NCBI GenBank assembly: GCA_002749065.1
Contig: PDTX01000003.1
Span: 145,685 to 209,684, forward strand
DNA length: 64,000 nucleotides
Direction of reading: 5' to 3'
DNA from: Bacteroidia bacterium
Lineage (GTDB): Bacteria > Bacteroidota > Bacteroidia > Bacteroidales > CAJPTX01
The notes under the pieces: model-generated
Database searches by the model: none
Seen by the model: the letters and a program-made list of their open reading frames with translations, nothing else
What the model was told of the DNA's origin: nothing
In this document: one piece after another, positions 18,198 through 39,783 of the stretch
Layout: each line of letters opens with the position of its first letter
Numbering within the stretch: the first letter of the stretch is position 1
Made by a program: the position numbers and the translations under genes

Positions 18198-18244
18198 AAA
18201 TCGAATCGCCCGCGGGTGCAACCGCCACGGGCCAGCATCCCGAG

Positions 18245-18316
18245 TAGCCCCAACAGGACTCGAACCTGTATCTGAAGTTTAGGAAACTTCCGTTCTATCC
18301 CTTGAACTATGGAGCC
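18245..18316 (-). tRNA. tRNA-Arg (anticodon CCT)
   Basis: Hand-folded cloverleaf on the minus strand. Acceptor GGCTCCA/TGGGGCT (G1-U72 wobble), U8, D arm GTTC-AAGGGATA-GAAC. Anticodon arm GAAGT-TTCCTAA-ACTTC, 4-nt variable loop, T arm ACAGG-TTCGAGT-CCTGT, discriminator A. No CCA is encoded. Confidence 0.85.
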
Positions 18317-24247: not shown

Positions 24248-24775
24248 ATGCGTGAGGACCTGGACCGCCCCCTGTTCCTGGTGGGCTTCATGGCTTGCGG
24301 CAAGAGCACCGTGGGGCGACGGCTCGCCCACGAGCTGGGGGTGGACTTCGTGGACCTGGACCTGGAGGTGGAAACCATGGCCGGCATGGGCATCCCGGAG
24401 ATATTCGCGCGGGACGGCGAGGTGGCCTTCCGCCGGATGGAGCGACGGGCCCTGGAGGAGGTCCTGCAGCGGCGATGCCCGATGGTGGTGGCCACGGGTG
24501 GCGGTACGCCCACGGTGGGCGATGCGATGATGCGGATGCGGGCCACGGGCTGGGTGGTCTACCTACGTGTGCCGGTGAATATGCTGGTGGAGAGGCTGAA
24601 GCGAGAGCGCTACCAACGACCATTGATAGCGGGCCTGGAGGGAGAAGAGCTTGAGCACTTCGTTATCAGCCACTTGGCGGAGCGGGAGCCCTGCTACCTG
24701 GAGGCCAATGCGGTGGTGGATGCCCGCACAGTGGAGGGCGATACCCTGCTGGAAATGCTCCGTGGACGGGGCTAG
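24248..24775 (+). CDS. aroK: shikimate kinase
   Basis: 175 aa. Walker A GFMACGKST and the DLD / FR..E motifs. Confidence 0.9.
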   Translation: MREDLDRPLFLVGFMACGKSTVGRRLAHELGVDFVDLDLEVETMAGMGIPEIFARDGEVAFRRMERRALEEVLQRRCPMVVATGGGTPTVGDAMMRMRATGWVVYLRVPVNMLVERLKRERYQRPLIAGLEGEELEHFVISHLAEREPCYLEANAVVDARTVEGDTLLEMLRGRG

Positions 24776-24804: not shown

Positions 24805-27633
24805 CTACACTTGGCCCATCGCCGTGGCCAGCGAGTCGATAATCCTCGCCTCCTCGCTATGACCATCCGTGGCGAGGCGGAGCAGGGGAAGATTAATGAA
24901 CCCTAAAATCCCGTCCTTCATCGCATCCCGCCTCTGCTGCTTCTCACGGCTATGGTAGCTCACGCCGTCCACCTCGATGGCCAGCACCGGCGACCTATCC
25001 ACCCGGTTGTACAGCAGGAAGTCCACGCTGGAGGTTCCCCGGATGAACTTCATCTCCTCATCCGAAAAGCCATGGACACCCCGGATTAGGTCCCTCAGTC
25101 GGTACTCCCGCACCACGTCGATGCTGGAGAACTGGGGCATGCGTAACACCCTGTTTTCCAGTAGGTCCAGCACGAGCTGCTCGGCCAGTGAGCCCCCCAC
25201 GTAGCGGTTCGAGGCGCGGAAGCGCGCGCGGGCCCTATGGTACTCCTTGTACAGCAGGTCGAAAACAGAGCGGAGCCTCCCGGCCACCACCGTCTCGCTC
25301 GGGTCGGTGGTGTAGAGCATGTAGCGGATCAGGTCGCCGATGTTCGTCCCGTGGGGCAGCGGCATGGATGCAGGCTTGACCACGATGAGCTCCTCCACGG
25401 CCCGGGACACCGCCACGTTTATCAGGTTCGGGTTGTCGATGAACGGGCCTATCTGGTCCCTCACCGTATTGAAGATTATCACATCCTTCTCGCGCCCCTG
25501 GAACTTGTGTATCGTATCTGCCTCAGTCCCATCGGGTAGGAGTCGCTGGAGCATATCCGCATGCCGCCTGTAGGGAGCGATTACGCCCACCCGCGTAAAA
25601 TCTGCGGCGTAGTGCTCACGGACGTACAGATCCGTTTCATCGATTTGCCGCTGATTGTAATTGCCCCGCCCCCCAGAGATATTCGTCTCGATAATCCTAA
25701 ATGGATGCCCAGCCATCTCCTTCATCACCACCAACTCATTACCATAGAATTTCTTATTGCAGAAGCCGATGATGGTGGGGTGGCACCTATAGTGCTCCCT
25801 TAGTAGGACCGAGCTAATACCCTTGCCGTACAGCGTTTTGAGCGAATCCAGTATGTTCATGCTGACGTAATCGTAGGCCCGGACCATGCTGTGCCTGGCC
25901 TGGAGCTGCTCGGCCAGCCCCTTGCTCTGGGCATCCACGATGTGGGTGAGCTGCATACTGTCGCCCACAATCACCGCGTTTCGGCAGCAGGAGAAGCAAA
26001 CGGCAGACTTAATAATGTCTACCTGGGAAGCCTCATCAATTATCAGGTAATCAAATAGATAACCCCTAGGTATGCTGCTGTGAAGCGAGAGGGTAGAGCT
26101 AAGCACTACGGGGTAGCGCCGGGCGAAGTCGTCGAATTGCCTTCGGTAGTTCTCCATGGAGAATGATGCGTGCTCAAGGGATTGGTAGCGGTGATGCAGC
26201 ACGCCATTCAGCACGGCCCTGGAGCTAAGCGTATATTCCTGCAGCATTTTCTCAATTTCCTTTTCCCATTTCTTTACCTTCCCAATCTCACACTCTATCC
26301 AGTTGATATACAGCTCGTAGAAGCGGTGATTTACGTATGTGACGAACTCATGGCGATACCTCCTCACGGTGGGGTAGCGGAGCATCCCGAACTTCAGCAT
26401 CGCATAGAACTGATTTATCAGCGATAGCCGATTCTCTATATTTATCCTTGAGAGTAAATCCTTTATTCTCAGCGCCCTATCGGTATCCATAATGTAGCGG
26501 AACTTCCGGTCGAGCACCGATTTCACCGCGGGGTCAAGCGCTTGCTCCGCCCTGACATGGGCAAATTCCGTCTTCGCATCCGCCAGCTGGGCTCTCAGTA
26601 CTGCGTATCTCTTTACATGCTGAAACCCCTCCATCAGCTTGGTTTCCAGCTCCCTAAGCTTCCCCTTGGCTTCCTCTGGCCTCTCGAAAGCCAGCATAAG
26701 CCCCAACTCCTTCAACTCTTTCGTTTCCTCCTTGGAATTTTCAAGCTCATTAAGAGATACAAAGCGTATTCGCTCCAGCGGTATTTCACTGATATTCTCA
26801 AAAAAGCTACTCCTATTCTCCTTCCTCCCGAGCGATGCCACGAGCCAGCCATAGCCCTCCTTCTCCAGCTTCTCCTTGACATTGAATACCGCGGAGTTAT
26901 TATTCGATACGATGGCTACCGTTTTCCCCCTCAGTATGATATTTGCCACAATGTTAAGTATAGTCTGGGTTTTCCCCGTGCCGGGTGGCCCCTCCACGAT
27001 GCTCATATTGGTCCGGAGCGCGGTTTCAACGGCCAATTGCTGGCTCTCATTGCAACCGAAGGGGAATACTACGGGCCATTTTGCCGGTCCATCCATGGGG
27101 AGCACACCATCGAGATAGGGGGAGAGGACAGACCTACCGTCCTCCAAATCAATATCTTCAAGCGCCTTGAGTAGTATGTCCGCGCTTATCTGATTGGGGT
27201 TAGCACCCTTCCCCTCGCCCTCCTCGGCCGGGAGGTCAAAGGTTACCCCGCCCGTTCCGCGGAGAATTTCCTTGAAATACTCTACTACGGATGCCCCTTG
27301 CTCCGTGCCCCTCCTCACCTCGCAGATTTCTATGTCCCCGTTCTTCTCAATCAAGTAGGGTTGCGTATCTTCCCCCCTTAAAATCAGGTGCTTATCATAA
27401 TCATCCACGATGTGGTACTTCTGCGCACGCCCCTTTATGTATACTCGGACATTCTCCCTTGTCGAGACTATCGGGTAGTACCTCACCCTGTCCGCCCCGT
27501 AGGCGTAGGACCTACCATTCGCGAAGGTCACGAGATACCCCTTCTCCGTGGGTTTCACCTCTGACACATCCCGCTTGTACTCAAATTTTAGGGAGTCCCT
27601 ATTCCTTAGAAATACAATAAATGGTTTTGCCAT
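24805..27633 (-). CDS. SF1 (Upf1/DNA2-like, AAA_11/AAA_12-type) helicase fused to a C-terminal restriction-endonuclease-like (DUF2726-type) domain; N-terminal ~200 aa unassigned
   Basis: 942 aa from the ATG at 27631-33 (the track start at 27663 is a TTG). Helicase motifs are Walker A GPPGTGKT (26968-26991), Walker B LIIDEASQ (26023-26046), VIVGDSMQL, LREHYRCHP, TIHKFQGREKDVIIF and NVAVSRA. The C-terminus reads SSVDFLLY...PVLAIEVDGVSYH...RRD. G+C is visibly lower than in the neighbours. Confidence 0.85.
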   Translation of the reverse strand: MAKPFIVFLRNRDSLKFEYKRDVSEVKPTEKGYLVTFANGRSYAYGADRVRYYPIVSTRENVRVYIKGRAQKYHIVDDYDKHLILRGEDTQPYLIEKNGDIEICEVRRGTEQGASVVEYFKEILRGTGGVTFDLPAEEGEGKGANPNQISADILLKALEDIDLEDGRSVLSPYLDGVLPMDGPAKWPVVFPFGCNESQQLAVETALRTNMSIVEGPPGTGKTQTILNIVANIILRGKTVAIVSNNNSAVFNVKEKLEKEGYGWLVASLGRKENRSSFFENISEIPLERIRFVSLNELENSKEETKELKELGLMLAFERPEEAKGKLRELETKLMEGFQHVKRYAVLRAQLADAKTEFAHVRAEQALDPAVKSVLDRKFRYIMDTDRALRIKDLLSRINIENRLSLINQFYAMLKFGMLRYPTVRRYRHEFVTYVNHRFYELYINWIECEIGKVKKWEKEIEKMLQEYTLSSRAVLNGVLHHRYQSLEHASFSMENYRRQFDDFARRYPVVLSSTLSLHSSIPRGYLFDYLIIDEASQVDIIKSAVCFSCCRNAVIVGDSMQLTHIVDAQSKGLAEQLQARHSMVRAYDYVSMNILDSLKTLYGKGISSVLLREHYRCHPTIIGFCNKKFYGNELVVMKEMAGHPFRIIETNISGGRGNYNQRQIDETDLYVREHYAADFTRVGVIAPYRRHADMLQRLLPDGTEADTIHKFQGREKDVIIFNTVRDQIGPFIDNPNLINVAVSRAVEELIVVKPASMPLPHGTNIGDLIRYMLYTTDPSETVVAGRLRSVFDLLYKEYHRARARFRASNRYVGGSLAEQLVLDLLENRVLRMPQFSSIDVVREYRLRDLIRGVHGFSDEEMKFIRGTSSVDFLLYNRVDRSPVLAIEVDGVSYHSREKQQRRDAMKDGILGFINLPLLRLATDGHSEEARIIDSLATAMGQV

Positions 27634-27660
27634 TCGACTCTTTCTTAGCCTTTTTGGCCA

Positions 27661-27668
27661 CAAGGATA
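27661..27668 (-). promoter_or_regulatory. promoter-like box TATCCTTG (minus strand) for the helicase-nuclease gene
   Basis: One mismatch to TAnnTTTG. It lies 28 nt upstream of the ATG at 27633, immediately after the upstream terminator T-tract. Confidence 0.35.
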
Positions 27669-27669
27669 C

Positions 27670-27709
27670 AAAAACCCCGCCCCTAATGCAAATGCTTTCG
27701 GGGCGGGGG
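27670..27709 (-). terminator. rho-independent terminator after the AAA-ATPase/PD-(D/E)XK gene (minus strand)
   Basis: The minus strand reads CCCCGCCCC (27708-27700), a 16-nt loop, GGGGCGGGG (27683-27675), then T5 (27674-27670). Confidence 0.75.
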
Positions 27710-27795
27710 AAATCTATGGTGAAGGGGGCTGAGCGTTACTTCGGACTGGAGCTTGATGGGAGAGAAGCGGGTTTAATCAATTGGTTTTCATCCAA

Positions 27796-29484
27796 TTAAA
27801 TCTCTTCCCAGGCCCAGTCGCAGTCGCCGCGCGTCTCCTCGCGCAGGTCGAAGGCCGCCCCGATGCCAAAAATGGGCTTGCCCTTGGCCCGGTGTGGCTC
27901 GGCGTAGGCCTTGGAGCGAATCTGGGCCAGGGCCGTCTGGCCGGTCTCCTGCCCGTGGGTCACCTTCAGCTCGAAGATGTAGATGGCGCTGGGCAGCTCC
28001 AGCACCACGTCCGCGCGCCCACGGACGGAGTGTGGCTCGGCGCGCACATCGCAGCCCAGGGCCGTGAACCACGCGTAGAGCGCCACCTGGAACAGCTCCT
28101 CGTAGACCCGTAGGCGGGCTGCGCGCCGCTTCTCCTCCCGCTCGAGGATGTCGGTCGCATCGAGCTTCTGCGTGGCCACCGCGCTGTAGGGGATGCCCGC
28201 GATGAGGGCCAGCAGCTCACACATAGCCTGCTCCACCCTGCCCTCATTGAGCTGGCGGAGGAAGTTCGCACCCTGGGCCCGGCGGAGGGCGGGTACACTC
28301 GGGCCAAATATCTCCAGCAGCACCCGCCAGAAGGAGGTCTCCACCTCGTGGTTCGGAAAGCCCAGATCGAAGAGGTTTGTGCGGGAGTCGAAGCCCTTAA
28401 TGGTCAGGTAGCCAGTCTGGTATAGCAAGGGGATGGGGTTGCGGCCGGTAAAATCCAGCCGTAGCATGTCCAGCTCATCGAGATAGATCGTACCGGTGAG
28501 CATCTGGAAATCAAAAGTATAGGTGGGGAACACGGTTGCCAGCAGGGCCGGGGTGCCCGTCCGCGCCCAGTAGTTGCCCAGCTGCCGCTGCTCAAGGCTA
28601 AAGATCACGCTCTGCGGGTTGTACACATACACGTCGCGGGTCGTGAAGCGGTAGCCGTCGTACTCATGGCGCAGACGGTCGATCTGCTCCTCGGGTGTTA
28701 TGCCCCCCTCCGCGGCCATGGCGGCAATCTCCGGGCCGAAGGCCTCCACCATCTCCCCCTCCGTCAGGCCGAAGAGGGTGGCGTAGCGGGGGAGCAGGGT
28801 CATGTCCTGCATCTGGTTCACCCCGCTGAAGAGGCTCAGCTCCGTGAACTGCGTGATGCCCGTGACCACCACCAGCTGCAGGTGCTCCCCGGTCTCCTTG
28901 ATGGCCTTGTAGAAGCCGCGGAGCTCCCGCTTGTAGTGCTCATGCAGCTCTCGCTGCGCGGGTAATAGCGTGTCCGTCAGCGGGTTGTCGTACTCGTCGA
29001 CGAGGATGACGGGGCGAAGCCCGCTCTGCTCGTGGGCGGCTATGATGAGCTGGGCCGTCCGGCTGCCGATGGGCCCGCTCGGGCTGAGCCCGTACTCGCC
29101 CTCGTACTGCCTGAGCCAGCGGTCGAGCACGTCGCGCACATCGTCCCGCTCGCTGAAGCCCGAGGCGGAGAAGCCGAAGAAGAAGGTGGGGTGCCTCACC
29201 CACTCCGTCACCCCGGCCTCGGCCCGGAGCTGGGCTATCCGCAGCCCCTCGAAGAGATGCCCCTCGCCCTGGAAGTAGCTCTGCAGCGTGCTTATCATCA
29301 GGCTCTTGCCGAAGCGCCTCGGGCGGGCGATGAACTGCACCGCGGGGCCGTTAATCAGCTCCCAGATGAGGTCGGTCTTGTCCACGTAGATGTACTGCTC
29401 CTCGCGCATCATACGGAAGCTCTGCACCCCGCTCGGCAGCCGACGGGGGGATATTTGCCGCGTACTCATGCTGCTATCCTCCAT
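27796..29484 (-). CDS. AAA-ATPase-like / PD-(D/E)XK nuclease fusion protein (AAA-ATPase_like + PDDEXK_9 architecture)
   Basis: About 562 aa. The N-terminus is LPSGVQSFRMMREEQYIYVDKT...ARPRRFGKSL (P-loop). The C-terminus is RGRADVVLELPSAIYIFELKV (D...ELK nuclease core). The track start at 29529 is a TTG upstream of the promoter box. The ATGs at 29484 and 29469 are both possible starts. Confidence 0.85.
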   Translation of the reverse strand: MEDSSMSTRQISPRRLPSGVQSFRMMREEQYIYVDKTDLIWELINGPAVQFIARPRRFGKSLMISTLQSYFQGEGHLFEGLRIAQLRAEAGVTEWVRHPTFFFGFSASGFSERDDVRDVLDRWLRQYEGEYGLSPSGPIGSRTAQLIIAAHEQSGLRPVILVDEYDNPLTDTLLPAQRELHEHYKRELRGFYKAIKETGEHLQLVVVTGITQFTELSLFSGVNQMQDMTLLPRYATLFGLTEGEMVEAFGPEIAAMAAEGGITPEEQIDRLRHEYDGYRFTTRDVYVYNPQSVIFSLEQRQLGNYWARTGTPALLATVFPTYTFDFQMLTGTIYLDELDMLRLDFTGRNPIPLLYQTGYLTIKGFDSRTNLFDLGFPNHEVETSFWRVLLEIFGPSVPALRRAQGANFLRQLNEGRVEQAMCELLALIAGIPYSAVATQKLDATDILEREEKRRAARLRVYEELFQVALYAWFTALGCDVRAEPHSVRGRADVVLELPSAIYIFELKVTHGQETGQTALAQIRSKAYAEPHRAKGKPIFGIGAAFDLREETRGDCDWAWEEI

Positions 29485-29496
29485 GCTTGTTTCATG

Positions 29497-29504
29497 CAAA
29501 GGTA
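29497..29504 (-). promoter_or_regulatory. -7 promoter box TACCTTTG (minus strand) for the AAA-ATPase/PD-(D/E)XK gene
   Basis: Perfect box. The first in-frame ATGs lie 13 and 28 nt downstream. Confidence 0.5.
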
Positions 29505-29568
29505 CGAATTTCCCCCGCGTTGCCTGCAAGTCCTTGGCAAAGAGTGCTGACCCTGAGTGGGTTCAGCC

Positions 29569-29958
29569 CTACTCTTCGTACAGCTCCATTCCCTCCCTCT
29601 TCAGCCCGTCGACGATAATCCCCCGGAGCTTTTCCATAAGCGGTGGCAGGGGCATTTTCCTGAATAAGCTCCAGAAACTCCGGATAATCCCCTTCGCCTC
29701 TATCGAAATCAGGAAGTTCACCTCCTCCCCGCCCATATTCCCCGTGACGACATGTATTATTATGGGGTGATCGGGCTGCTCCACCCGTATCTCGTAGCAA
29801 CTATCCGTGGGGTAGAAGTCGCTCACTGTCAACCCATTCTCCTCCAGGAGCTTGCAGACGAACTCCCCCAAACGCCTACCGAACCTATCGGGGTTTATCT
29901 CCCTCTCCTCGTTGGGGTAGGGCGGAAAGGCCCCGGTTATTATGAGCTCTGTTCTCAT
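29569..29958 (-). CDS. hypothetical 129-aa cytoplasmic protein (no recognisable family)
   Basis: ATG start 18 nt after the stop of the upstream lipoprotein gene. There is no signal peptide or TM helix. I recognise no motif. Confidence 0.6.
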   Translation of the reverse strand: MRTELIITGAFPPYPNEEREINPDRFGRRLGEFVCKLLEENGLTVSDFYPTDSCYEIRVEQPDHPIIIHVVTGNMGGEEVNFLISIEAKGIIRSFWSLFRKMPLPPLMEKLRGIIVDGLKREGMELYEE

Positions 29959-29976
29959 AGCCCTATTTTGTGTTTA

Positions 29977-30813
29977 TTATTTGTCCCGCGTAAAAGGGCG
30001 GAGGGCAAAGTGAAAGCTACGTAGGCCCAGGTCCACATTTATCTTGCTGTCCCCGAAGCTCGCCCCCATGGCCCCCATGCCATCGAAGGGGGAGCACGAC
30101 CACCATCCGCTCCCGTCGCCCCGGTACCACTGCTCCGCGGGGTCGGTGCGACCATCCAGCAGGCCCAGCGCCGGGAAGTAGCGCCGCACCGCATCGCTCG
30201 CGACATCCCAGTAGTCCTCCCGTTGCACCCCCTCAGGGCTCGCCCCATCGTCCACCCGCGCGCGCACCTCCAGACCCAGACCGACCTTGTACTCAAACCG
30301 GAGGGCGTAGGTGCGACTGCCCGACCCGCTCGGCATGCTCTTCACGACATAGGCCACGAGCACATCCCCCTGCCAGCTGAGCGATATCGGCTCCCCATCG
30401 GCATTGGTGAACAGCACCCTCAGCTCCTCCACCGTGGGAATGGCCCACTCCGCATCGCTACTCCCGCCAGCCGCCGCACGCCATTCGGTGAAGCTGTTCC
30501 TCTCCCCCTCCGCGGACTTGCTCCTCAGGGCGGGGTAGCGGAAAAGGCTGCCGAACTTCGCATCCTCCTCCGGAGAGCCCGCCTTCGTGATGCCCTCGAG
30601 GTCCTCCCACCTCTCCGGGACCTGCTCGCAGAAGCCCGCCACCTCGCCGTCGGGCCCAGCCAGCAGGTTCACCCGGGCGAAGCGGGCCAGGTAATTGTCC
30701 CGGTAGGCCGGGTCCGCATCGGGCCCTACCATCATCCCCGAGCCGCATCCGCCCAGCGTGAGCAGCCCTAGCCCCAGGAGCACCCATGCAATCATTAACC
30801 TTATCCTTGCCAT
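29977..30813 (-). CDS. lipoprotein with C-terminal FISUMP/DUF1566-like motif
   Basis: 278 aa with lipobox LTLGG-C-GSG. The C-terminus YFPALGLLDG...GSGWWSCSP...RSFHFALRPF resembles the LPAAGyR...GyYWSSs...g.svRCv pattern of the 'Fibrobacter succinogenes major paralogous' type domain. This is a similarity judged by eye only. Confidence 0.65.
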   Translation of the reverse strand: MARIRLMIAWVLLGLGLLTLGGCGSGMMVGPDADPAYRDNYLARFARVNLLAGPDGEVAGFCEQVPERWEDLEGITKAGSPEEDAKFGSLFRYPALRSKSAEGERNSFTEWRAAAGGSSDAEWAIPTVEELRVLFTNADGEPISLSWQGDVLVAYVVKSMPSGSGSRTYALRFEYKVGLGLEVRARVDDGASPEGVQREDYWDVASDAVRRYFPALGLLDGRTDPAEQWYRGDGSGWWSCSPFDGMGAMGASFGDSKINVDLGLRSFHFALRPFTRDK

Positions 30814-30846
30814 ACTCTCAGCGTATTTACCTTGTTAATAATGCGA

Positions 30847-30854
30847 CAAATATA
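30847..30854 (-). promoter_or_regulatory. -7 promoter box TATATTTG (minus strand) for the lipoprotein/129-aa operon
   Basis: Perfect box 34 nt upstream of the ATG at 30813. A second identical box sits at 30967-30974. Confidence 0.5.
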
Positions 30855-31339
30855 GGGAATATATCGGACAAGGGTACCCCTATTGAGCCATCGGCGGGCG
30901 ATGAGGCCCTGAGGGCGGGCGCGCTACCCCTCAAGCCCAGGATTTATCGGCGCTGCAGACTATTTTCAAATATATGGCGAAGACGATGCTATGCCTCCCC
31001 AGCGTGGGGCTTCGTCCATCGGCGGAGGGGCTGCCGCCCGCATGTGCCCAAAATGCCCGCATTTGCGCATGAGCGATGAGCTGGTTCTCCGTTTTTTTGT
31101 ACCTTGCGCCTCGGGAATTGCATTCTTTGGGGCATTTCTATGGCTTTCAGCTCGACCTTCGGTGCGCCTTTCTGCTGCGCCATCACCACGATACTTCCGC
31201 GGGTGATGAGCGGCGGACAGGGCCCGTCGTCCTGGATGCCGCATGATGCGCACGAAGCCGATGTACCCGCTGTTCCCGGATGATGGGGTAATGCGTAAGC
31301 AGTACCTGTTTGCCGACTTGTTAAACAACCTTGGCACTG

Positions 31340-33697
31340 ATGGATAAGCAGATAGAAAAGAGTAAACCGAACCGCTCCGCGCAGAGGTTCATACGGATTT
31401 TCTGGGGCGCGTTCGGCTCCATCATCCTGCTGGTGGTGCTGCTGTTCACGCTGATTTCCCTCGGGGTTTTCGGCGACATGCCCACCTTCGAGGAGCTGGA
31501 GAACCCCAAGAGCAACCTGGCCAGCGAGGTGTTGGCGGCCAACCACAGCATCCTGGGCACCTTCTACATCCAGAACCGCTCCGGGGTGAGCTACGACGAG
31601 CTCTCGTCCCACCTACCGGCCGCGCTCATCTCCACCGAGGACGAGCGCTTCTACTCCCACTCGGGCATCGATGCCCTCGGCCTGGGGCGCGTCATCCTCA
31701 AGACCGTCCTGCTGCGCCAGCGGGGTGCGGGGGGGGGGTCGACCATATCCCAGCAGCTGGCCAAGAACCTCTTCCCGCGCGACACGGTGCACTCCGCCAG
31801 CAGCCTGGTGCGGGGCGGGCGCCTGGTGCTCTCCAAGTTCAAGGAGTGGGTGACGGCCGTGAAGCTGGAGCGGAACTACACCAAGGACGAGATCTTGACC
31901 ATGTACCTCAACACGGTGCCCTTCGGGTCGAACGCCTTCGGCATCAAGATGGCGGCCCGCACCTTCTTCGACACCACCCCCGACTCGCTGCGGGTGGAGG
32001 AGGCCGCCATGCTGGTGGGCCTGGTCAAGGGGCCAAGCTACTACAGCCCGGTGCGCCACCCGGAGCGCGCGCGCAAGCGGCGGAACGTGGTGCTGCAGCA
32101 GATGGTCAAGTGCGACCGGCTCACCGAGCAGCAGTACGACTCCCTCTCGCAGCTCCCCCTGGAGATAAGGTACAGGATGCAGGACCACAACACCGGGCTG
32201 GCCACCTACTACCGCGAGCTGCTGCGCATCCAGATGACGGCCCAAAAGCCCCAGCGCGGGAGCTACGCCACCCTCGAGGAGTACCAGGCCGACTCCCTAC
32301 GGTGGGAGACGAGCGACCTGTACGGCTGGTGCAACAAGAACCTCAAGCCCGACGGCACGCCCTACAACCTCTACCGCGACGGCCTGAAAATCTACACCCC
32401 CATCGACGCGAACCTGCAGCGCTACGCGGAGGAGGCCATCGCCCAGCACCTCGGCGAGTATCTGCAGCCGGCCTTCTTCCGGGAGAAGAAGAAGTCGCTC
32501 TTCAGCTACAAAATCCCCAAGAAGATGCGCGAGCAGGTAATCCGCCACGGCATCGTGCGCACCGAGCGCTACCGCAACATGCGCGCCGCGGGCGCCACCC
32601 AGCAGGAGATAGACAGCGCCTTCCATAGGAAAATCAGGACCACGCTCTTCTCCTGGAAGGGGGACATCGATACGGTCATCACCCCCTACGATTCGATGCT
32701 CTACATGAAGAAGATTCTGCGCTGCGGCTTCATCGCCATGGAGCCCAACTCCGGGCGGGTGCGGGCCTACGTGGGGGGCAACAGCTTCAAGTACTTCAAG
32801 TACGACCAGGTGTACGTGGCCCGTCGGCAGATCGGCTCGACCATCAAGCCCTTCCTCTACACCCTGGCCATGCAGGAGGGCTACTCGCCCTGCATGCAGG
32901 TGCCCAACGTGCCGCAGGTCTTCCAGGTGGGCAACTCGACCTGGACCCCGAAGAACTCCGGCAAGACCCGCCACGACGGGGAGATGGTCACCCTGAAGTG
33001 GGGCCTGGCCAACTCGGTCAACAACATATCGGCCTGGCTGGTCAAGCAGTTCACCCCGCATGCGGTGGCCAACCTCATGCACAAGATGGGCATCCACAGC
33101 TTCATCGACCCGGTGTGGTCCATCTTCCTGGGCACCTCCCTGATTACCAACTACGAGCTGACCGCGGCCTACAACGCCTTCGCCTCGGGGGGCTGGCACG
33201 TAGACCCCCTGCTGGTGGACCGCATAGAGGACAAGAACGGGAACATCATCTCGCGCTTCTACCCCGAGAAGCGGGTGGTGATCAGCCCCGAGACGGCCTA
33301 CCTGATGGTCAACCTCCTGCGGGGGGTGGTGGACCACGGCTCGGGCCTGCGCATGCGCTACATCTACAAGCTGCAGGGCCCGCTGGGGGGCAAGACCGGC
33401 ACGACGCAGAACCACGCCGACGGGTGGTTCACGATGATACACCCCAACATCGTGCTGGGCACCTGGGTGGGGGCCGATGACCCGCAGGTCTTCTTCAACA
33501 GCATGACCTACGGCCAGGGGGCGAGCATGGCCCTGCCCATCGCGGGGCGCTTCATGCAGAAGGCCTACGCCGACCCGAGCTCCGGCATCAAGGAGACCGA
33601 CGAGTGGAAGGTGCCGGAGAACCTCCGGGGCGTGTACTTCAACTGCAACACCACCGATTCGGTGGAATCCCAGAATGAGGGCGATGAATTCTTCTAA
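31340..33697 (+). CDS. mrcA: penicillin-binding protein 1A (bifunctional transglycosylase/transpeptidase)
   Basis: About 785 aa from the ATG at 31340 (the track start at 31331 is a TTG). GT51 motifs EDERFYSHSGID and RKRRNVVLQQM. Transpeptidase motifs GSTIKP (SxxK), SVN and KTGTT. Confidence 0.92.
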   Translation: MDKQIEKSKPNRSAQRFIRIFWGAFGSIILLVVLLFTLISLGVFGDMPTFEELENPKSNLASEVLAANHSILGTFYIQNRSGVSYDELSSHLPAALISTEDERFYSHSGIDALGLGRVILKTVLLRQRGAGGGSTISQQLAKNLFPRDTVHSASSLVRGGRLVLSKFKEWVTAVKLERNYTKDEILTMYLNTVPFGSNAFGIKMAARTFFDTTPDSLRVEEAAMLVGLVKGPSYYSPVRHPERARKRRNVVLQQMVKCDRLTEQQYDSLSQLPLEIRYRMQDHNTGLATYYRELLRIQMTAQKPQRGSYATLEEYQADSLRWETSDLYGWCNKNLKPDGTPYNLYRDGLKIYTPIDANLQRYAEEAIAQHLGEYLQPAFFREKKKSLFSYKIPKKMREQVIRHGIVRTERYRNMRAAGATQQEIDSAFHRKIRTTLFSWKGDIDTVITPYDSMLYMKKILRCGFIAMEPNSGRVRAYVGGNSFKYFKYDQVYVARRQIGSTIKPFLYTLAMQEGYSPCMQVPNVPQVFQVGNSTWTPKNSGKTRHDGEMVTLKWGLANSVNNISAWLVKQFTPHAVANLMHKMGIHSFIDPVWSIFLGTSLITNYELTAAYNAFASGGWHVDPLLVDRIEDKNGNIISRFYPEKRVVISPETAYLMVNLLRGVVDHGSGLRMRYIYKLQGPLGGKTGTTQNHADGWFTMIHPNIVLGTWVGADDPQVFFNSMTYGQGASMALPIAGRFMQKAYADPSSGIKETDEWKVPENLRGVYFNCNTTDSVESQNEGDEFF

Positions 33698-34145
33698 GCC
33701 CACGCCCAGGCAGGCCCGGCTCGCCATCCTGCTCGCCCTGCTGTGCGTCGGCCTCCTGCCGGCCTGCGACGACAGGGAGGAGAAGTCGCCCGTGCCGCAT
33801 TCGTACGTGAATCTCGTGCTGCCGCTGAACCTGCCGCAGTACGAGCAGCTGAACTTCCCGGGGAGCATCTACACCTGCAAGGACGAGGGCTTCCAGGGGC
33901 GGGGCATCTTCGTGCTGCATTGCCCCGAGGGTGAGGGCTGCTTCAGGGCCTTCGACGCCACCTGCCCGCGCCACCTGCCCGAGCGACCGGTCACCGTCGA
34001 GCTAAAAGGCCACGAGGCGGTGTGCCCCTACTGCAACACGCACTACAACCTCCTCAACGAGGGGGTGGGGGGCGACGGCAAGTACCAGCTCCAGCGCTAC
34101 AAGTGCCACTTCGACCCACCCAACCTGAGCGTGAAGTCCCGCTGA
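33675..34145 (+). CDS. small lipoprotein with Rieske-like Cys/His motifs (hypothetical)
   Basis: 156 aa with lipobox LLPA-C-DD. Contains CPRH ... CPYCNTH. The start overlaps the PBP1A 3' end by 23 nt, and an alternative ATG lies at 33684. Confidence 0.65.
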   Translation: MRAMNSSKPTPRQARLAILLALLCVGLLPACDDREEKSPVPHSYVNLVLPLNLPQYEQLNFPGSIYTCKDEGFQGRGIFVLHCPEGEGCFRAFDATCPRHLPERPVTVELKGHEAVCPYCNTHYNLLNEGVGGDGKYQLQRYKCHFDPPNLSVKSR

Positions 34146-34180
34146 GCCCCCCGTGGCTTGCTTTTACGGCGAATACTAGC

Positions 34181-34188
34181 TACCTTTG
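34181..34188 (+). promoter_or_regulatory. -7 promoter box TACCTTTG for hutU
   Basis: Perfect box 27 nt upstream of the ATG at 34215. Confidence 0.5.
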
Positions 34189-34214
34189 GCCTCATATACC
34201 AAAAGCAGCACGCC

Positions 34215-36224
34215 ATGAACGATTTCCAGACAGAGATACTGGCCGGCATCCCCGCCTCGCTCCCGGCCCCCCGCCCCCTCAGCACGACCCTTAGCCACGC
34301 CCCCCGCCGCAAGGACATCCTCTCGGCCGAGGAGCAACGGCTGGCCCTGCGCAACGCCCTGCGCTACTTCCCCCCGGAGCAGCACGCTGAGCTGGCCCCC
34401 GAGTTCGCGGCCGAGCTGCGGGAGTACGGACGCATATACATGTACCGCCTGCGCCCCTCGTACCAGATGTACGCCCGGCCGATAGGCGAGTACCCGGCCA
34501 GGTGCCAGCAGGCCGCGGCCATCATGCTGATGATACAGAACAACCTGGACCCCGCCGTGGCCCAGCACCCCGAGGAGCTGATCACCTACGGGGGGAACGG
34601 CGCGGTGTTCCAGAACTGGGCGCAGTACCGCCTGGCGATGCAGTACCTGGCGACGATGACCGACCACCAGACCCTGGTGATGTACTCGGGCCACCCGATG
34701 GGCCTCTTCCCCTCGCACCCCGATGCCCCGAGGGTGGTGGTGACCAACGGGATGGTCATACCGAACTACTCCAAGCCCGACGACTGGGAGCGCCTCAACG
34801 CGCTGGGCGTATCGCAGTACGGCCAGATGACGGCGGGCTCCTACATGTACATCGGCCCGCAGGGCATAGTGCACGGCACGACCATCACCGTGCTGAACGC
34901 CGGGCGCACCCGCAAGGCGGCCGATGCGCCAGACCTCGGGGGGATGCTCTTCGTGTCGTCCGGTCTGGGGGGCATGTCCGGGGCCCAGCCCAAGGCCGGC
35001 AGGATATCCGGCGTGGTGAGCGTCATCGCCGAGATAAACCCCCACGCGGCCCAGAAGCGGCACGCGCAGGGCTGGGTCGACGAGCTGTTCGAGAGCCTCG
35101 ACGAGCTGCTGCCCCGGGTTCGGAAAGCGATGGCGGGCCGGGAGGCCGTGTCGATCGCCTACCTCGGGAACGTGGTCGATCTCTGGGAGCGGCTGGCCCA
35201 GGAGGATATCCCCGTGCATCTGGGGAGCGACCAGAGCTCGCTGCACAACCCCTTCTCGGGGGGCTACTACCCCGTGGGCCTGAGCTTCGAGGAGGCCAAC
35301 GCGATGCTCGCCTCAAAGCCGGAGGAGTTCAAGCAGCGGGTGCACGAGTCGCTGCGCCGCCAGGTGAAGGCCATCAACACCCTGGCCGAGCGGGGCATGT
35401 ACTTCTTCGACTACGGCAACGCCTTCCTCCTGGAGTCGAGCCGGGCCGGGGCCGACATCCTGGCCGCGGATGGGAAGGGCTTCCGCTACCCCTCCTACGT
35501 GCAGGACATCATGGGGCCGCTGTTCTTCGACTACGGCTTCGGCCCCTTCCGCTGGGTGTGCACCTCCGGTAGGCCGGAGGACCTCGCCCTCACCGACCAG
35601 ATAGCCCTGGAGGTGCAGGAGGACATGCTGCGGACCGCCCCCGAGGAGATCCGGGCCCAGCTCGAGGACAACATCCTCTGGATAAAGGGCGCGCAGCAGA
35701 ACCGGCTGGTGGTGGGCTCCCAGGCCCGCATCCTCTACGCCGATGCTGAGGGCCGAGCGCGCATCGCCCACCGCTTCAACGAGGCCGTTCGGCTCGGCAG
35801 GCTGAGCGCCCCCGTCGTGCTGGGCAGGGACCACCACGACGTATCGGGCACCGACTCCCCCTACCGCGAGACCTCCAACATATACGACGGCTCGCAGCTC
35901 ACGGCCGACATGGCCATCCACAACGTCATCGGCGATGCCTTCCGCGGGGCCACCTGGGTATCCATCCACAACGGCGGGGGCGTGGGCTGGGGCGAGGTGA
36001 TCAACGGCGGCTTCGGGCTGGTGGTCGACGGGTCGCCCGAGGCGGATATGCGCCTGGAGCGGATGCTCTTCTGGGACGTGAACAACGGCATAGCCCGTAG
36101 GTCCTGGGCGCGCAACCCCAGCGCCATGTTCGCCATGGCCCGGGAGATGGGCCGCACGCCCGCCCTCCAGGTGACCATGCCGCACCTGGTGGACGACAGC
36201 CTCATAGAGGGGGCGATGGGCTAG
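34215..36224 (+). CDS. hutU: urocanate hydratase
   Basis: 669 aa from the ATG at 34215 (the track start at 34158 is a TTG overlapping the promoter box). Full-length urocanase similarity is evident by eye (YGGNGAVFQNW, GLGGMSGAQP, RDHHDVSGTDSPYRETSN). Confidence 0.95.
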   Translation: MNDFQTEILAGIPASLPAPRPLSTTLSHAPRRKDILSAEEQRLALRNALRYFPPEQHAELAPEFAAELREYGRIYMYRLRPSYQMYARPIGEYPARCQQAAAIMLMIQNNLDPAVAQHPEELITYGGNGAVFQNWAQYRLAMQYLATMTDHQTLVMYSGHPMGLFPSHPDAPRVVVTNGMVIPNYSKPDDWERLNALGVSQYGQMTAGSYMYIGPQGIVHGTTITVLNAGRTRKAADAPDLGGMLFVSSGLGGMSGAQPKAGRISGVVSVIAEINPHAAQKRHAQGWVDELFESLDELLPRVRKAMAGREAVSIAYLGNVVDLWERLAQEDIPVHLGSDQSSLHNPFSGGYYPVGLSFEEANAMLASKPEEFKQRVHESLRRQVKAINTLAERGMYFFDYGNAFLLESSRAGADILAADGKGFRYPSYVQDIMGPLFFDYGFGPFRWVCTSGRPEDLALTDQIALEVQEDMLRTAPEEIRAQLEDNILWIKGAQQNRLVVGSQARILYADAEGRARIAHRFNEAVRLGRLSAPVVLGRDHHDVSGTDSPYRETSNIYDGSQLTADMAIHNVIGDAFRGATWVSIHNGGGVGWGEVINGGFGLVVDGSPEADMRLERMLFWDVNNGIARRSWARNPSAMFAMAREMGRTPALQVTMPHLVDDSLIEGAMG

Positions 36225-36250
36225 AGGGGCGCAGGGGCAAGAATAGGGTA

Positions 36251-36287
36251 GCGGGGTGTGCTCTCCCGGGAGTACGCCCCGCTTTTT
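36251..36287 (+). terminator. rho-independent terminator after hutU
   Basis: GCGGGGTGT ... ACGCCCCGC stem (one G-U pair) followed by T5. Confidence 0.8.
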
Positions 36288-36345
36288 ATGGCCCCGCTTC
36301 TGTACTCAGACAAGCGCGAATGGCCTGGCCCACGCCATTTTTTCC

Positions 36346-36353
36346 TATCTTTG
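36346..36353 (+). promoter_or_regulatory. -7 promoter box TATCTTTG for purD
   Basis: Perfect box 27 nt upstream of the ATG at 36380. Confidence 0.5.
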
Positions 36354-36379
36354 CGAGCCATAATCAACGAAGTACAGCC

Positions 36380-37696
36380 ATGACACCATCGGACCAGAAG
36401 CGAATTCTCATCCTAGGAACAGGCGGACGCGAGCACGCGCTGGCGTGGCGGCTGATGCAGAGCCCCAGCAAGCCGGCGGTCTACGCGCTACCCGGCAATC
36501 CGGGTATGGAGGAGGACGGGGTGAGCTGCGTGGCGGGCGAATCCACGGATTTTGCCAGGGTTCGCACCGTATGCCTCGACCTCGGGATAGACCTCGTGGT
36601 GGTGGGCCCCGAGCAGGCCCTGGTCGATGGCATAGTGGACTTCTTCCGGGCGGACGATGCGCTGCGGAGCATCCCGGTCTTCGGACCATCGCGGCAGGCC
36701 GCCCACCTCGAGGGGAGTAAGCGCTTCGCCAAGGATTTCATGGCCCGCCACTCCATCCCGACCGCCCGCTACGGCAGCTTCACGCGCGAGAGCATCGAGG
36801 CTGCGATGGAGTTCCTCGCTACGATGCGCCCCCCCTACGTGCTGAAGGCCGATGGGCTGGCGGGGGGGAAGGGCGTGCTAATCCCCGAGACCCTCGAGGA
36901 GGCCCAAAGGGCGCTCAGGACCCTGCTGGACGGGCAGTTCGGCGAGGCTAGCAGCACGGTCGTAATCGAGGAATTCCTCCAGGGGCGCGAGGTCTCAGTC
37001 TTCGCCATATGCGATGGGGAGGACTACTACCTCCTCCCCCCGGCGAAGGACTACAAGCGCGCGCTCGACGGCGACAGGGGGCCCAATACGGGGGGGATGG
37101 GCTCGGTGAGCCCCGTGCCCTACGCCGACGACACATTCATGGCCCGAGTGGAGGAGCGCATCGTCAGGCCCACCCTCAGGGGGATGCGCGAGGAGGGCCA
37201 CCCCTTCGTGGGCTTCATGTTCCTGGGCCTGATGTGTAGCCCGGAGGGCGAGCCGCAGATGATAGAGTACAACGTGCGCATGGGCGACCCCGAGACCCAG
37301 GTGGTCATGCAGCGCGTGGAGGGCGACCTGGCCGGCATGCTGCTCTCCGCGGCCAAGGGCGAGCTCGGGGGGAAGCGCCTCGGGCTCAGCCGCGACTGCT
37401 GCGTCTCCATATCGCTGACCTCGGAGGGCTACCCGGGGAAGTACGAAACGGGGCGGGCGGTAACGGTGTCCCCCGTCGGAGATTTGCAGTGCAAGCTCTT
37501 CCATGCCGGCACGCAACGAGGGGAGGATGGCATCCTGCGCACCAAGGGCGGAAGGGTATTCTCGGCCTGTGGCAGAGGGGCAAGCCTCGAGGAGGCGCTC
37601 ACGAAGGCCCATCGCCAGGCGGCGGCCGTAGAGTATGAGGGAAAGACCTCACGCAGCGACATCGGTCAGGACATACAGCGCTACTCGGCCAGCTAG
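36380..37696 (+). CDS. purD: phosphoribosylamine--glycine ligase
   Basis: 438 aa from the ATG at 36380 (ILILGTGGREHALAW..., ATP-grasp body, GDPETQ). Confidence 0.95.
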   Translation: MTPSDQKRILILGTGGREHALAWRLMQSPSKPAVYALPGNPGMEEDGVSCVAGESTDFARVRTVCLDLGIDLVVVGPEQALVDGIVDFFRADDALRSIPVFGPSRQAAHLEGSKRFAKDFMARHSIPTARYGSFTRESIEAAMEFLATMRPPYVLKADGLAGGKGVLIPETLEEAQRALRTLLDGQFGEASSTVVIEEFLQGREVSVFAICDGEDYYLLPPAKDYKRALDGDRGPNTGGMGSVSPVPYADDTFMARVEERIVRPTLRGMREEGHPFVGFMFLGLMCSPEGEPQMIEYNVRMGDPETQVVMQRVEGDLAGMLLSAAKGELGGKRLGLSRDCCVSISLTSEGYPGKYETGRAVTVSPVGDLQCKLFHAGTQRGEDGILRTKGGRVFSACGRGASLEEALTKAHRQAAAVEYEGKTSRSDIGQDIQRYSAS

Positions 37697-37702
37697 CCGA
37701 CC

Positions 37703-38686
37703 ATGCTCGAATTCTTCAGCCATAAGCACCCCACACGAACACTCTGGGCGCTGCTCCTGGTGCTCATAACGTGGGCAGTGGGGCTATACGTCCACCCCCC
37801 CCTGTGGCAGGAATCCCCCCTACATGCCGGACTAATCAGCCTGGCAGTCAGCGGAATCAATCCATACCTCCTCAAATCCCTGGAGCTCCTCCTCCTTATG
37901 GGCACGGTTTTCGCCGTGCGGGCGCTGATGAACCGCCTGTTCAACTCCCTGTTCCAGAGCGGACTATACATCCTACTAGCCTGCCTGAGCGCCACCTCGC
38001 TTAGCCTCTCGAGAGCCCCCATGCTCGCTCCCGGCCTCGGCCTGATACTGCTGGTCTACGGAACCTACCTGCTTACCATACCCAGCGTATCCAGCATTCT
38101 CAGCAGTAGGGTATTACGTGCATCAGTCTCGCTATCAGTCGCAAGCCTCCTCTTCCTCCCCTACGGCCTGCTGCTCCCCATCCCCCTGCTGGCCACAGTC
38201 CAGAGGGGAGCTATGAACCCCCGGATATTCGCCGCCTGGCTGGCCGGAGCCCTCCTGCCACACGCATTCGCCCTCGCCACCTGCTACCTCTTCGGCATCT
38301 CCCTGCTGGCCTACATTCCGGACTATAGCCCTGCCGATATCACCCTCGAGGTCATCCTTAGCACCCTGAACATCAACCCCTTGCAGCTAGCCTACTGGTT
38401 CAGCCTAATCACCCTCTGGGTGGTGGCCGAGCTGCTCTACCCACCCCAGCTGAGCAGCCAACGCAACAGCTACCTTCTGGCCAGAAACCTACGTATATTC
38501 ACCATCATAGCCCTCCTCATCAGCCTGATACTCACCGGTGCGACCACCGGGCTGAGCCTGGCACTCGGACCGACCATGAGCATCCCCATCACCCGCCTCC
38601 TCCTCTCCAGCCAGCGCGCCTGGCTCAAGACCCTCCTCTTCACCACCCTGCTCGCCATGGCCCTCATTACCCAGCTTGTGGGTTAG
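37703..38686 (+). CDS. polytopic membrane protein (hypothetical)
   Basis: 327 aa with about 9 hydrophobic segments. It starts 7 nt after purD. No recognisable family. Confidence 0.7.
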   Translation: MLEFFSHKHPTRTLWALLLVLITWAVGLYVHPPLWQESPLHAGLISLAVSGINPYLLKSLELLLLMGTVFAVRALMNRLFNSLFQSGLYILLACLSATSLSLSRAPMLAPGLGLILLVYGTYLLTIPSVSSILSSRVLRASVSLSVASLLFLPYGLLLPIPLLATVQRGAMNPRIFAAWLAGALLPHAFALATCYLFGISLLAYIPDYSPADITLEVILSTLNINPLQLAYWFSLITLWVVAELLYPPQLSSQRNSYLLARNLRIFTIIALLISLILTGATTGLSLALGPTMSIPITRLLLSSQRAWLKTLLFTTLLAMALITQLVG

Positions 38687-38754
38687 CCCGCAAAGAAGAT
38701 TTACCCCCCGAGAATAGAATGAAAAACGGGTATCATCCAAAAAATGATTGGCAT

Positions 38755-39090
38755 ATGGAAACCATTGATTACTTGACCTTTGCATCCGTAAACATGCATG
38801 TGGGCACCATCCTCGAAGCCACGCCCAACGAGAAGGCCCGCATGCCCGCCTACAAATTGCTCATAGACTTCGGACCGCTGGGTACAAAGAGTAGCTCGGC
38901 CCAGATTACCGAGCACTATACCCCTGAGCAGCTGCGAGGTATGCAGATTATCGCGGTGCTCAATTTTGAGCCCAAGCGTATCGCCGGTTTCAAATCCGAG
39001 GTGCTGGTCCTGGCCGCCGTCAGCGATACGGAGGGCACCGTCCTCCTGCAGCCCACCCAGTATGTCGCCAATGGCGCGCGCATTAGCTAG
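38755..39090 (+). CDS. tRNA-binding domain protein (CsaA/YgjH-like)
   Basis: 111 aa from the ATG at 38755 (METIDYLTFASVNMHVGTILEA...ARMPAYKLLIDFG...SSAQIT). The longer start at 38719 is also an ATG, but it exceeds the usual family length. Confidence 0.8.
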   Translation: METIDYLTFASVNMHVGTILEATPNEKARMPAYKLLIDFGPLGTKSSSAQITEHYTPEQLRGMQIIAVLNFEPKRIAGFKSEVLVLAAVSDTEGTVLLQPTQYVANGARIS

Positions 39091-39751
39091 GGTATAGCTT
39101 TCGGTAGCAACTCGACACAGTGGGTATGCCCCATCCCGGGGAAATCCACGGCTTTTTTGCGTGCGTACGGTATAAGCCCCGGAAGGTCCGCAATTATCGC
39201 CGTAGAGCCTTTTGTCAGCCTGAGCTCTCCGGAGCCCACTAGGTAGGGTAGGGCAGGAGCGAGTATTCAGTCCCGAGAAGTGCGGTATACATTTGTACAA
39301 TAGTGTATTTTCATTCGCAAGCTTTTTATTCATGAGTACTTTTTATACTGTATAGTAGCATATTAAGTATAGAATAATCCGATGACACTAGGATTTTTAC
39401 CCTCGAATACTCCCCGCCCATCCACGAGTATGAGCCACTACACGAGCTTTTCCCCTTCACTAGCTTGGTAACCAAGCCCGAACTCGCCTTTTCCTCCTCT
39501 CCCCACCCCTTATGGGGAGAATTCATCTTTCAAAAGTGGGCCTGAAAACGCGGAGCTGGCAGAGCGGAGCAAAAGACGAACAGAAAGTGCTATCCAAGCT
39601 ATTATGCTGGGGCTTAGAGCAAGGGTGCTGAAGCTAGTGAAGAGGCGTATACAATTTACAGCTCCACGGCTATGGAGTAGATGGAAAATATTGCTACATT
39701 TGTAGCGACCAAATAGGCCACAGGACTAATTCGTCGGCGGTGGCCGTAATG

Positions 39752-39759: not shown

Positions 39760-39783
39760 TAACACTCGCCGACGTCGGATAAA

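Follow-up and report, generated by a model that had tools for sequence, protein, structure and literature searches.

The question that this locus raises is whether four neighbouring genes, two of which encode proteins that pair a nucleoside triphosphatase (NTPase) with a nuclease, form a defence island. They lie between aroK and the gene for penicillin-binding protein 1A (PBP1A) in a 64-kb stretch of a Bacteroidia metagenome-assembled genome (contig PDTX01000003.1, locus tags CSA07_). The whole stretch is called the window here, and its G+C content is 63.6%. An earlier note, made from the letters alone, had read the interval as a defence-island-like insertion. Our analysis points elsewhere. 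We consider it probable that the interval at 24.8-30.8 kb is mosaic accessory DNA just upstream of PBP1A, not one island or system, and that it carries one credible immune gene, a helicase-nuclease named helnuc in the following. The four genes have separate histories, and the interval lies at a point of divergent gene order within this lineage. It consists of one defence candidate (helnuc), one possible immunity-type gene (unk129), one resident multi-copy gene (the DUF1703 gene) and one unclassified lipoprotein (lipo278). The genes and their flanks, in the order of the forward strand, are the following.

24248-24775, plus strand: aroK (shikimate kinase), the left housekeeping flank (PF01202 SKI, E 2e-39)
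24805-27633, minus strand: helnuc (CSA07_01080), 942 aa, superfamily 1 (SF1) helicase with Vsr/DUF2726 nuclease, from Pfam
27796-29484, minus strand: DUF1703 protein (CSA07_01085), AAA-ATPase_like and PDDEXK_9 domains, from Pfam
29569-29958, minus strand: unk129 (CSA07_01090), 129 aa, without signal peptide, low G+C
29977-30813, minus strand: lipo278 (CSA07_01095), 278 aa, lipobox LTLGG-C, host-like G+C
30814-31339: intergenic region of 526 bp, in which collinearity with the closest relative stops
31340-33697, plus strand: PBP1A, Transgly and Transpeptidase domains, the housekeeping gene on the right; it opens the block that is collinear with the sister genome

The open reading frame (ORF) map and the Pfam searches bore out the four minus-strand genes between aroK and PBP1A. 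Pfam also upheld the domain calls made before, a helicase-nuclease and an AAA-ATPase/PD-(D/E)XK fusion, and the lipobox in lipo278 agrees with the lipoprotein that had been proposed. The start of the helicase gene, placed earlier at the TTG at 27663, was corrected to the ATG at 27633, since the resulting 942-aa product is identical to the database protein. The convergent stops of aroK and helnuc are 29 bp apart, and lipo278 ends 18 bp upstream of unk129.

The evidence that carries our reading is, in the first place, that the families do not travel together. Among 98 loci with helnuc relatives, none had a homologue of DUF1703, unk129 or lipo278, and among 80 viral loci with DUF1703 relatives there was none of helnuc, unk129 or lipo278. 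The "two nucleases with NTPase partners side by side", from which the island had been deduced, are by these counts a chance juxtaposition. Nor does the interval contain two adjacent recognised defence families: no full-length match to a PADLOC model was obtained and no NCBIfam cut-off was reached. Strictly speaking, it is no defence island. Of the grounds on which the earlier note's reading would fail, one was found in part: the families do not co-occur beyond chance, but the documented non-defence functions that the same ground names exist for none of them. The lesson is a negative one, as two adjacent ATPase-nuclease genes are no evidence for a defence island.

In the second place, base composition changes from gene to gene. 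The G+C content and the G+C at third codon positions (GC3) were 54.2% and 0.71 in helnuc, 65.0% and 0.89 in DUF1703, 54.4% and 0.75 in unk129, and 66.3% and 0.83 in lipo278, compared with 64.0 ± 4.8% and 0.86 ± 0.11 in the other genes of the window (n = 34). It had been stated that foreign composition is limited to the helicase gene and that the DUF1703 gene is host-like; the second part stands (65.0%), while unk129 turned out to be as low as helnuc (54.4% against 64%). This alternation of 54, 65, 54 and 66% argues for several events and against a single acquisition. The idea of independent modules instead of one operon or system was thus supported, both by the lack of co-occurrence and by the G+C mosaic.

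The transcription signals of the interval were then located. These are listed in the direction of transcription, from lipo278 to helnuc.

30847-30854, minus strand: exact -7 box TATATTTG, 34 nt upstream of the ATG of lipo278
29497-29504, minus strand: exact -7 box TACCTTTG, upstream of the DUF1703 gene
27670-27708, minus strand: intrinsic terminator after the DUF1703 gene, a 9-bp G+C stem at 27675-27708 followed by U5
27661-27668, minus strand: imperfect -7 box TATCCTTG, with one mismatch, 28 nt upstream of the ATG of helnuc; putative promoter

Against an expectation of 6.2, the window contains 25 copies of the TAnnTTTG motif, and 0 of 100 shuffled sequences reached 25. Of the three boxes that had been proposed, those at 30847-30854 and 29497-29504 are exact, and the one at 27661-27668 departs from the consensus at one position. 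This last box follows directly on the U-tract of the terminator, with a TTTG about 20 nt further upstream within the hairpin loop, and it may act as the promoter of helnuc. The strong terminator that had been noticed between DUF1703 and helnuc was confirmed (-24.9 kcal/mol, z = -4.45, with 0 of 200 shuffles equally stable). Between unk129 and DUF1703 no significant terminator hairpin was detected (z = -0.57), and therefore read-through from lipo278-unk129 into DUF1703 is possible. No hairpin lies in the 29-bp gap between helnuc and aroK, and no terminator was found after helnuc. Two units are well supported, namely lipo278-unk129, possibly reading into DUF1703, and helnuc behind its terminator. 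The three separate units proposed before are plausible, the boundary between unk129 and DUF1703 being the one without a significant terminator.

The intergenic region at 30814-31339 is unusually long and has a lower G+C (57-58%). A second exact TATATTTG is located there at 30967-30974 on the minus strand, 154 nt upstream of the ATG of lipo278, and this part of the region might serve as another promoter or encode a small RNA. Rfam gave no match in it even at a permissive threshold, and no exact TAnnTTTG box for PBP1A was present on its plus strand.

Gene order was compared by scanning a genome collection for the PBP1A region, which gave 11 loci. Only one of them is close (86% identity), on a contig that ends 7 kb upstream of PBP1A. 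It belongs to a dolphin-oral Bacteroidetes genome (contig L002, PDRH01) whose PBP1A and hutU are 86% and 90% identical to those of the window. By tblastx, collinearity was limited to 31357-39090 of the window against 6943-14683 of L002 (at least to 39090), and it stops at the 5′ end of PBP1A. In more distant relatives the region upstream of PBP1A holds topA, or an unknown ORF followed by PSP1 and priA, so that it was different in every relative examined. Within 10 kb upstream of PBP1A, aroK was present in 0 of the 11 loci (L002 covering 7 kb only), and therefore there is no conserved empty site. The exact aroK protein was found on one other contig, in the same arrangement, and the next nearest, 65% identical, is on a contig of 1.4 kb. 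Exact protein look-ups gave no record for PBP1A or for two DUF1703 paralogues of the same genome. In the synteny comparison that had been suggested, gene order does break at the 5′ end of PBP1A, and empty sites could not be cleanly compared with occupied ones. Equally, the term "insertion" is not demonstrable, considering that the 11 loci offer no conserved empty site and that the G+C mosaic suggests several events.

It was also possible to see, upstream of PBP1A in L002 (28-6855, plus strand), an unrelated ORF of 2,275 aa beyond which the contig ends. It had no match in Pfam or PADLOC and no counterpart in the 64-kb window, and it speaks neither for nor against a defence hotspot.

Marks of mobility were searched for at the borders, where none had been seen before, and the result was the same for integrases, transposases, tRNA genes and direct repeats. 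There was no recombinase domain in the four proteins by Pfam and no recognisable integrase at the borders. The only tRNA gene, Arg-CCT at 18244-18316, is 6.5 kb away behind housekeeping genes, and the flanking direct repeats did not exceed chance-level matches of 14-34 nt, none of them att-like.

The defence candidate of the interval, helnuc, is a full-length, highly conserved and patchily spread family of Bacteroidota. The database search returned thousands of matches, the best 120 of which were full-length (about 913-944 aa) and, apart from the query itself, all 56-60% identical. Among the organisms named as sources are Dysgonomonas, Pedobacter, Chitinophaga and Tannerella. Most prominent in Bacteroidota, the family also has more distant full-length relatives in other phyla. 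In the alignment of 26 homologues the mean column identity was 79%, and the protein of the window is an outlier with 58-62% identity to all the others, which are far closer to one another. The database does contain proteins of the sister genome, yet among the matches listed the range between 60% and 100% identity was empty, and therefore helnuc is not a vertically shared core gene. By comparison with the 86-90% of PBP1A and hutU in the sister genome, this gap supports the view that the interval is non-core.

The neighbourhoods of helnuc relatives were examined in 56 non-redundant loci with 242 flanking ORFs, the relatives being near full length and mostly 30-57% identical. In other genomes looked at individually, the gene is solitary and adjoins AbiEii, HipA, Fic or a Cas3-like helicase. 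At least 10 of the 242 ORFs were type I or III restriction subunits, and there were also specificity and methylase subunits, BrxC, RhuM/PDC-S05, PDC-S23, PbeA, HipA and four integrases. As a control we took 94 ORFs around PBP1A (10 loci), which matched three PADLOC models (DpdF and two pVip) besides generic ones and included no restriction enzymes (Fisher one-sided p = 0.036 for restriction subunits). A copy on a Parabacteroides plasmid comes after a SNF2 protein, a large N6-methylase (3.4-kb gene) and a TIR protein, one on an Escherichia coli plasmid lies between insertion sequence (IS) elements, and further relatives come from IMG/VR contigs and from plasmids in several phyla. The family is therefore often found in defence or mobile contexts elsewhere, in a way that the housekeeping control, nearly devoid of such genes, is not.

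The domain organisation of helnuc is given next, from the N-terminus to the C-terminus.

27049-27633, minus strand: N-terminal region, residues 1-195, family-specific (no Pfam match in residues 1-200)
25348-27024, minus strand: SF1 helicase core, residues 204-762 (AAA_11, AAA_12)
26182-26679, minus strand: helical insertion, probably coiled-coil, residues ~319-484, between Walker A and Walker B
24808-25095, minus strand: C-terminal Vsr-like/DUF2726 nuclease, residues 847-942 (PF10881, Pfam match 847-945)

The helicase core was recognised by AAA_11 (E 4e-21) and AAA_12 (E 4e-23). The SF1 motifs are all present, with Walker A GPPGTGKT at 215-222, Walker B DEASQ at 533-537, VGDSMQL at 556-562, EHYRCHP at 613-619, QGREKD at 712-717 and NVAVSRA at 739-745, and most motif residues are invariant in the 26 homologues. 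The nuclease was recognised by PF10881 (E 9e-12, 45 bits against a cut-off of 24.7) and weakly by MTES_1575 (17.8 bits against 38.2), and its residues D871, E887 and D889 (VDFLLY ... IEVDG) are invariant. The N-terminal region is conserved across the family. In the AlphaFold2 (AF2) model, residues 1-55 form a predicted six-stranded beta domain, with a predicted local distance difference test score (pLDDT) of 64-84, and the insertion is formed by helices 319-363 and 427-484 (pLDDT 70-85). These two parts and the C-terminal nuclease are the reasonably confident ones. The nearest solved structures to the helicase core were DNA2, which was the best, UPF1, IGHMBP2 and SETX, and Foldseek matched the nuclease locally with BstEII and TnsA from a low-confidence model. 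Since the model is poor, Foldseek confirmed domain-level similarity only. In addition, the protein of the window has a private insertion of 21 aa at residues ~300-320 (26674-26736), absent from 25 of 25 aligned homologues.

Considering these features, helnuc may be a stand-alone immune protein. Its N-terminal region, possibly a sensor or nucleic-acid-binding module, would together with the helicase recognise foreign nucleic acid (single-stranded DNA, RNA or replication intermediates) and translocate along it. ATP hydrolysis would then license the fused nuclease to cut it, or alternatively to cut cellular nucleic acid in an abortive response. The proposal is modelled on Mokosh type II, Nhi, Hna and HmaA and on the CnuH-effector modules of CoCoNuTs, all of which are compared below.

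The second ATPase-nuclease of the interval, the DUF1703 protein, has a different character. It matched AAA-ATPase_like (PF09820; E 6e-49, 167 bits against a cut-off of 26.1) and PDDEXK_9 (PF08011; E 3e-14, 53.4 bits against 25.5), and an alternative ATG at 29469 gives the 557-aa product of NCBI. The Walker A variant RPRRFGKS (54-61), the Walker B DEYD (163-166) and the nuclease residues E462, D492, E505-x-K507 and Q521 were invariant in 22 sequences. They correspond to the Walker motifs and nuclease motifs I-IV as defined for the family (PMC1913061), and with PF09820 and PF08011 in place the protein is a typical member, in which nothing notable differs. Its AF2 model is good (pLDDT 83). Structure comparison gave weak matches, with a template modelling score of at most 0.22 of the query, to AAA+ proteins (Vps4, p97, clamp loader and TnsC) and to restriction-endonuclease-like folds (CinB and HincII), and no solved relative was found by sequence. 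At least three paralogues exist in this genome (CSA07_01085, CSA07_01705 and CSA07_04730) and at least four in the sister genome. The closest relatives form a lineage-specific clade of paralogues at least 51% identical, after which identity drops to about 40%. In the literature the family is described as multi-copy and horizontally transferred, with no conserved context in Bacteroidetes and with its function unknown (PMC6387759, PMC3424549). In related genomes, two paralogues stand singly, surrounded by housekeeping or unknown genes, with no enrichment of defence genes near them, and among the defence models only LmuA of PADLOC gave a match, a weak one (E 0.001).

Relatives of the DUF1703 protein were also found on at least 133 IMG/VR contigs, some of them adjoining serine recombinases, TOTE primase-helicases or phage recombination modules. 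A group from human-gut viral contigs (about 26% identical; 1046-4503 of locus L134, 5933-9668 of locus L135 and about 40 similar IMG/VR loci) lies directly downstream of a Sak single-strand annealing protein, which itself comes after a YqaJ exonuclease or an AAA_14 plus DUF4143 ATPase. The Sak and YqaJ context hints at a recombination-linked role. Most likely, the DUF1703 protein would be an ATP-dependent DNA-processing protein tied to mobile elements or recombination and not a partner of helnuc. A paralogue of the sister genome (contig L018) has a pair of unannotated genes on either side, of 240 and 114 aa and of 249 and 119 aa, at 1840-2911 on the minus strand and 4842-5954 on the plus strand, with no PADLOC match. 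They were tried as counterparts of lipo278 and unk129 and rejected, as no similarity was detectable. On the strength of an adjacent ATPase-nuclease gene, as in the window, a DUF1703 gene should not be annotated as defence.

Neither of the two small genes, unk129 and lipo278, had a match in Pfam, NCBIfam, PADLOC or PHROGs. The unk129 family is rare, with 36 representatives of about 130 aa among 1.84 billion proteins. Two homologues (39-43% identical by tblastn) come from genomes of low G+C (31-36%), and both sit in long arrays in which small unannotated ORFs (86-240 aa) share one strand, at 1-10387 of locus L197 and 1-10384 of locus L200. One array includes Imm11 and AbiH, the other NADAR, VapBC and a Y2 transposase. 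No homologue of lipo278 was present beside either of them, and therefore the pair lipo278-unk129 of the window is not a conserved module. In lipo278, a host-like lipoprotein, the stretch W-x-I-P-T-x-E-E-L may resemble the DUF1566/FISUMP lipoproteins, a likeness that Pfam does not support. The layout around the unk129 relatives, with same-strand small ORFs and in one case Imm11, is like that of the orphan-immunity gene arrays, or acquired interbacterial defence clusters, of Bacteroidales (10.1101/471110). The unk129 of the window differs in that it is outside any array, after a single lipoprotein gene, with no toxin, type VI secretion gene or recombinase nearby. It is possibly an orphan immunity-type protein and would be a small protein, acquired horizontally, such as these arrays contain.

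Several points weigh against the reading of the interval as a mosaic with one immune gene. The neighbourhood control covered few loci (10), all of them around a single core gene, and most of the helnuc relatives in the neighbourhood analysis are only 30-40% identical to the protein of the window. The AF2 model of helnuc, built from 26 near-identical homologues, has an overall pLDDT of 52, which makes the calls of the coiled-coil and of the N-terminal domain tentative. No PADLOC or NCBIfam defence model covered the full helnuc or reached its curated cut-off. The anti-phage activity and the substrate of helnuc are inferred. The contig of the sole close relative ends 7 kb upstream of PBP1A, and the absence of the four genes from the sister genome is deduced from protein searches of an incomplete metagenome-assembled genome. 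Finally, the immunity reading of unk129 is based on two contexts at 39-43% tblastn identity.

Three other explanations were considered. The one that survives best, which we regard as unlikely, is that the locus is selfish or phage-derived cargo, in which DUF1703, and possibly helnuc, would have spread by transfer and duplication and not by benefit to the host. The at least 133 viral contigs with DUF1703 relatives, some near recombinases or phage recombination modules, are in line with it, as are the multi-copy expansion and horizontal transfer reported for the family (PMC6387759) and the plasmid relatives of helnuc between IS elements. However, no mobility gene or repeat is in or next to the interval, the composition of DUF1703 is fully host-like and its motifs are intact, and in related genomes its paralogues stand alone, with housekeeping or unknown genes around them.

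This last observation also speaks for a second explanation, ordinary DNA metabolism, with helnuc as a repair or replication helicase-nuclease of the Dna2/AddAB type, DUF1703 as a recombination or repair factor and the locus as normal chromosome. The host-like G+C of DUF1703, its relatives beside Sak and YqaJ genes in gut phage contigs, the DNA2 helicase core as the best solved-structure match of helnuc and the strong conservation of the helnuc family (79% mean column identity) are consistent with it. It is nevertheless improbable: helnuc has no orthologue at 60-100% identity against 86-90% for the core genes of the sister, its context, different in every genome examined, abounds in genes of restriction-modification, toxin-antitoxin and integrase type, its G+C is low, it is also found on plasmids and on contigs called viral, and its nuclease is of the Vsr/DUF2726 type and not of the Dna2/RecB type.

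The third, a true defence island inserted as a unit, whose four genes, or at least the two ATPase-nucleases, were acquired together and cooperate, is suggested by four adjacent genes on one strand, by two proteins each pairing an NTPase with a nuclease, by an interval that appears non-core and by helnuc relatives that are often near defence genes, but it is largely refuted by the absence of co-occurrence (0 of 98 helnuc and 0 of 80 DUF1703 loci) and is further contradicted by the alternating G+C, by the strong terminator and separate promoter boxes between helnuc and DUF1703, by borders without integrase, att repeats or tRNA and by a DUF1703 that is a resident multi-copy paralogue without a defence model beyond the weak LmuA, so that we hold it to be very improbable. 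What stays of the defence-island reading is one single-gene defence candidate, helnuc, in a non-core modular stretch; the coordinated island does not.

Other parts of the window also depart from its average composition. An ORF of 813 aa at 8981-11422 (plus strand) has a G+C of 54.3% and a GC3 of 0.71, the same as helnuc. It had no match in Pfam or PHROGs and only marginal PADLOC matches of coiled-coil type (JetC and LmuB, E ~1e-4), and it is possibly another horizontally acquired gene. Three further genes of clearly low G+C, with GC3 of 0.52-0.63, are at 38701-39333 (minus strand), 39796-40413 (plus strand) and 42575-42931 (plus strand), on the two sides of the RNase P RNA gene (40489-40910), and a cluster of five TAnnTTTG boxes is present at 39288-40312. 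The gene at 38701-39333 is conserved in the sister contig L002.

By comparison with the known systems, we place helnuc among the candidate immune proteins of the helicase-nuclease class, as an uncharacterised member outside any named system. The PADLOC models MkoC, MkoA, PDC-S37 and Hhe matched its helicase core only, the match to Nhi was marginal (E 0.0013), and the NCBIfam scores for Hhe and ProA were far below their cut-offs. Hhe, attributed to Gao et al. in 2020, is reportedly a DUF4011 helicase with a Vsr-like nuclease of about 1,800 aa. It has in common with helnuc an AAA_11/AAA_12 SF1 helicase and a Vsr/MTES_1575-type nuclease in one protein. The assignment of helnuc to Hhe was rejected, given that NF042953 scored 82.3 bits against a cut-off of 2,000 over two short stretches, that there is no DUF4011 and that the protein has 942 aa.

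Mokosh type II (MkoC) is a single-gene anti-phage system with an N-terminal COG1112/UPF1-like helicase and a C-terminal phospholipase D (PLD) nuclease (10.1101/2022.05.11.491447). The likeness resides in the single polypeptide with a UPF1-like helicase and a C-terminal nuclease, and MkoC was the best PADLOC match of helnuc (E 1e-41), spanning residues 202-762 only. This assignment was rejected too, as Pfam shows no PLD family and the C-terminus is DUF2726/Vsr-like. In Nhi, Hna and HmaA, a solitary helicase with a PD-(D/E)XK-type nuclease suffices for defence, and the helicase is thought to be the sensor and the nuclease the effector (PMC11232893). Unlike helnuc, Nhi carries its nuclease at the N-terminus and its SF1 helicase is of the DUF2075 type, and the helicases of Hna and HmaA are of superfamily 2 whereas that of helnuc is SF1.

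The closest described architecture is that of CnuH-Vsr in the type III-B CoCoNuTs, likened here by its description and not by sequence. The CnuH helicases of CoCoNuTs are UPF1-like, have a coiled-coil insertion after Walker A and are fused to Vsr in type III-B (PMC11090510). In helnuc, the predicted helices 319-484, placed between the two Walker motifs, and the DUF2726 at the C-terminus would correspond to this arrangement (in an AF2 model with pLDDT 52). Type III-B systems also include CnuB/McrB with an NxD GTPase, CnuC/McrC, CnuA and CnuD, whereas helnuc is without such neighbours: its own are aroK and DUF1703, and no McrB or McrC (CnuB/CnuC) family is in the interval. Moreover, the N-terminus of helnuc is beta-rich and that of CnuH a Sul7s-like winged helix, and the host of helnuc is a member of Bacteroidota while type III-B is mainly of Alphaproteobacteria. 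We tentatively put forward, as a serious possibility, that the helnuc family of about 920 aa is a stand-alone anti-phage or anti-plasmid protein missing from the defence catalogues, a solo CnuH-Vsr that would work without McrBC. If helnuc is a defence gene, it adds a common single-gene system to the helicase-nuclease immune class. It would also give a handle on how sensing by a UPF1-like helicase with a coiled-coil insertion is coupled to a fused Vsr nuclease, a coupling so far addressed in CoCoNuTs by prediction only.

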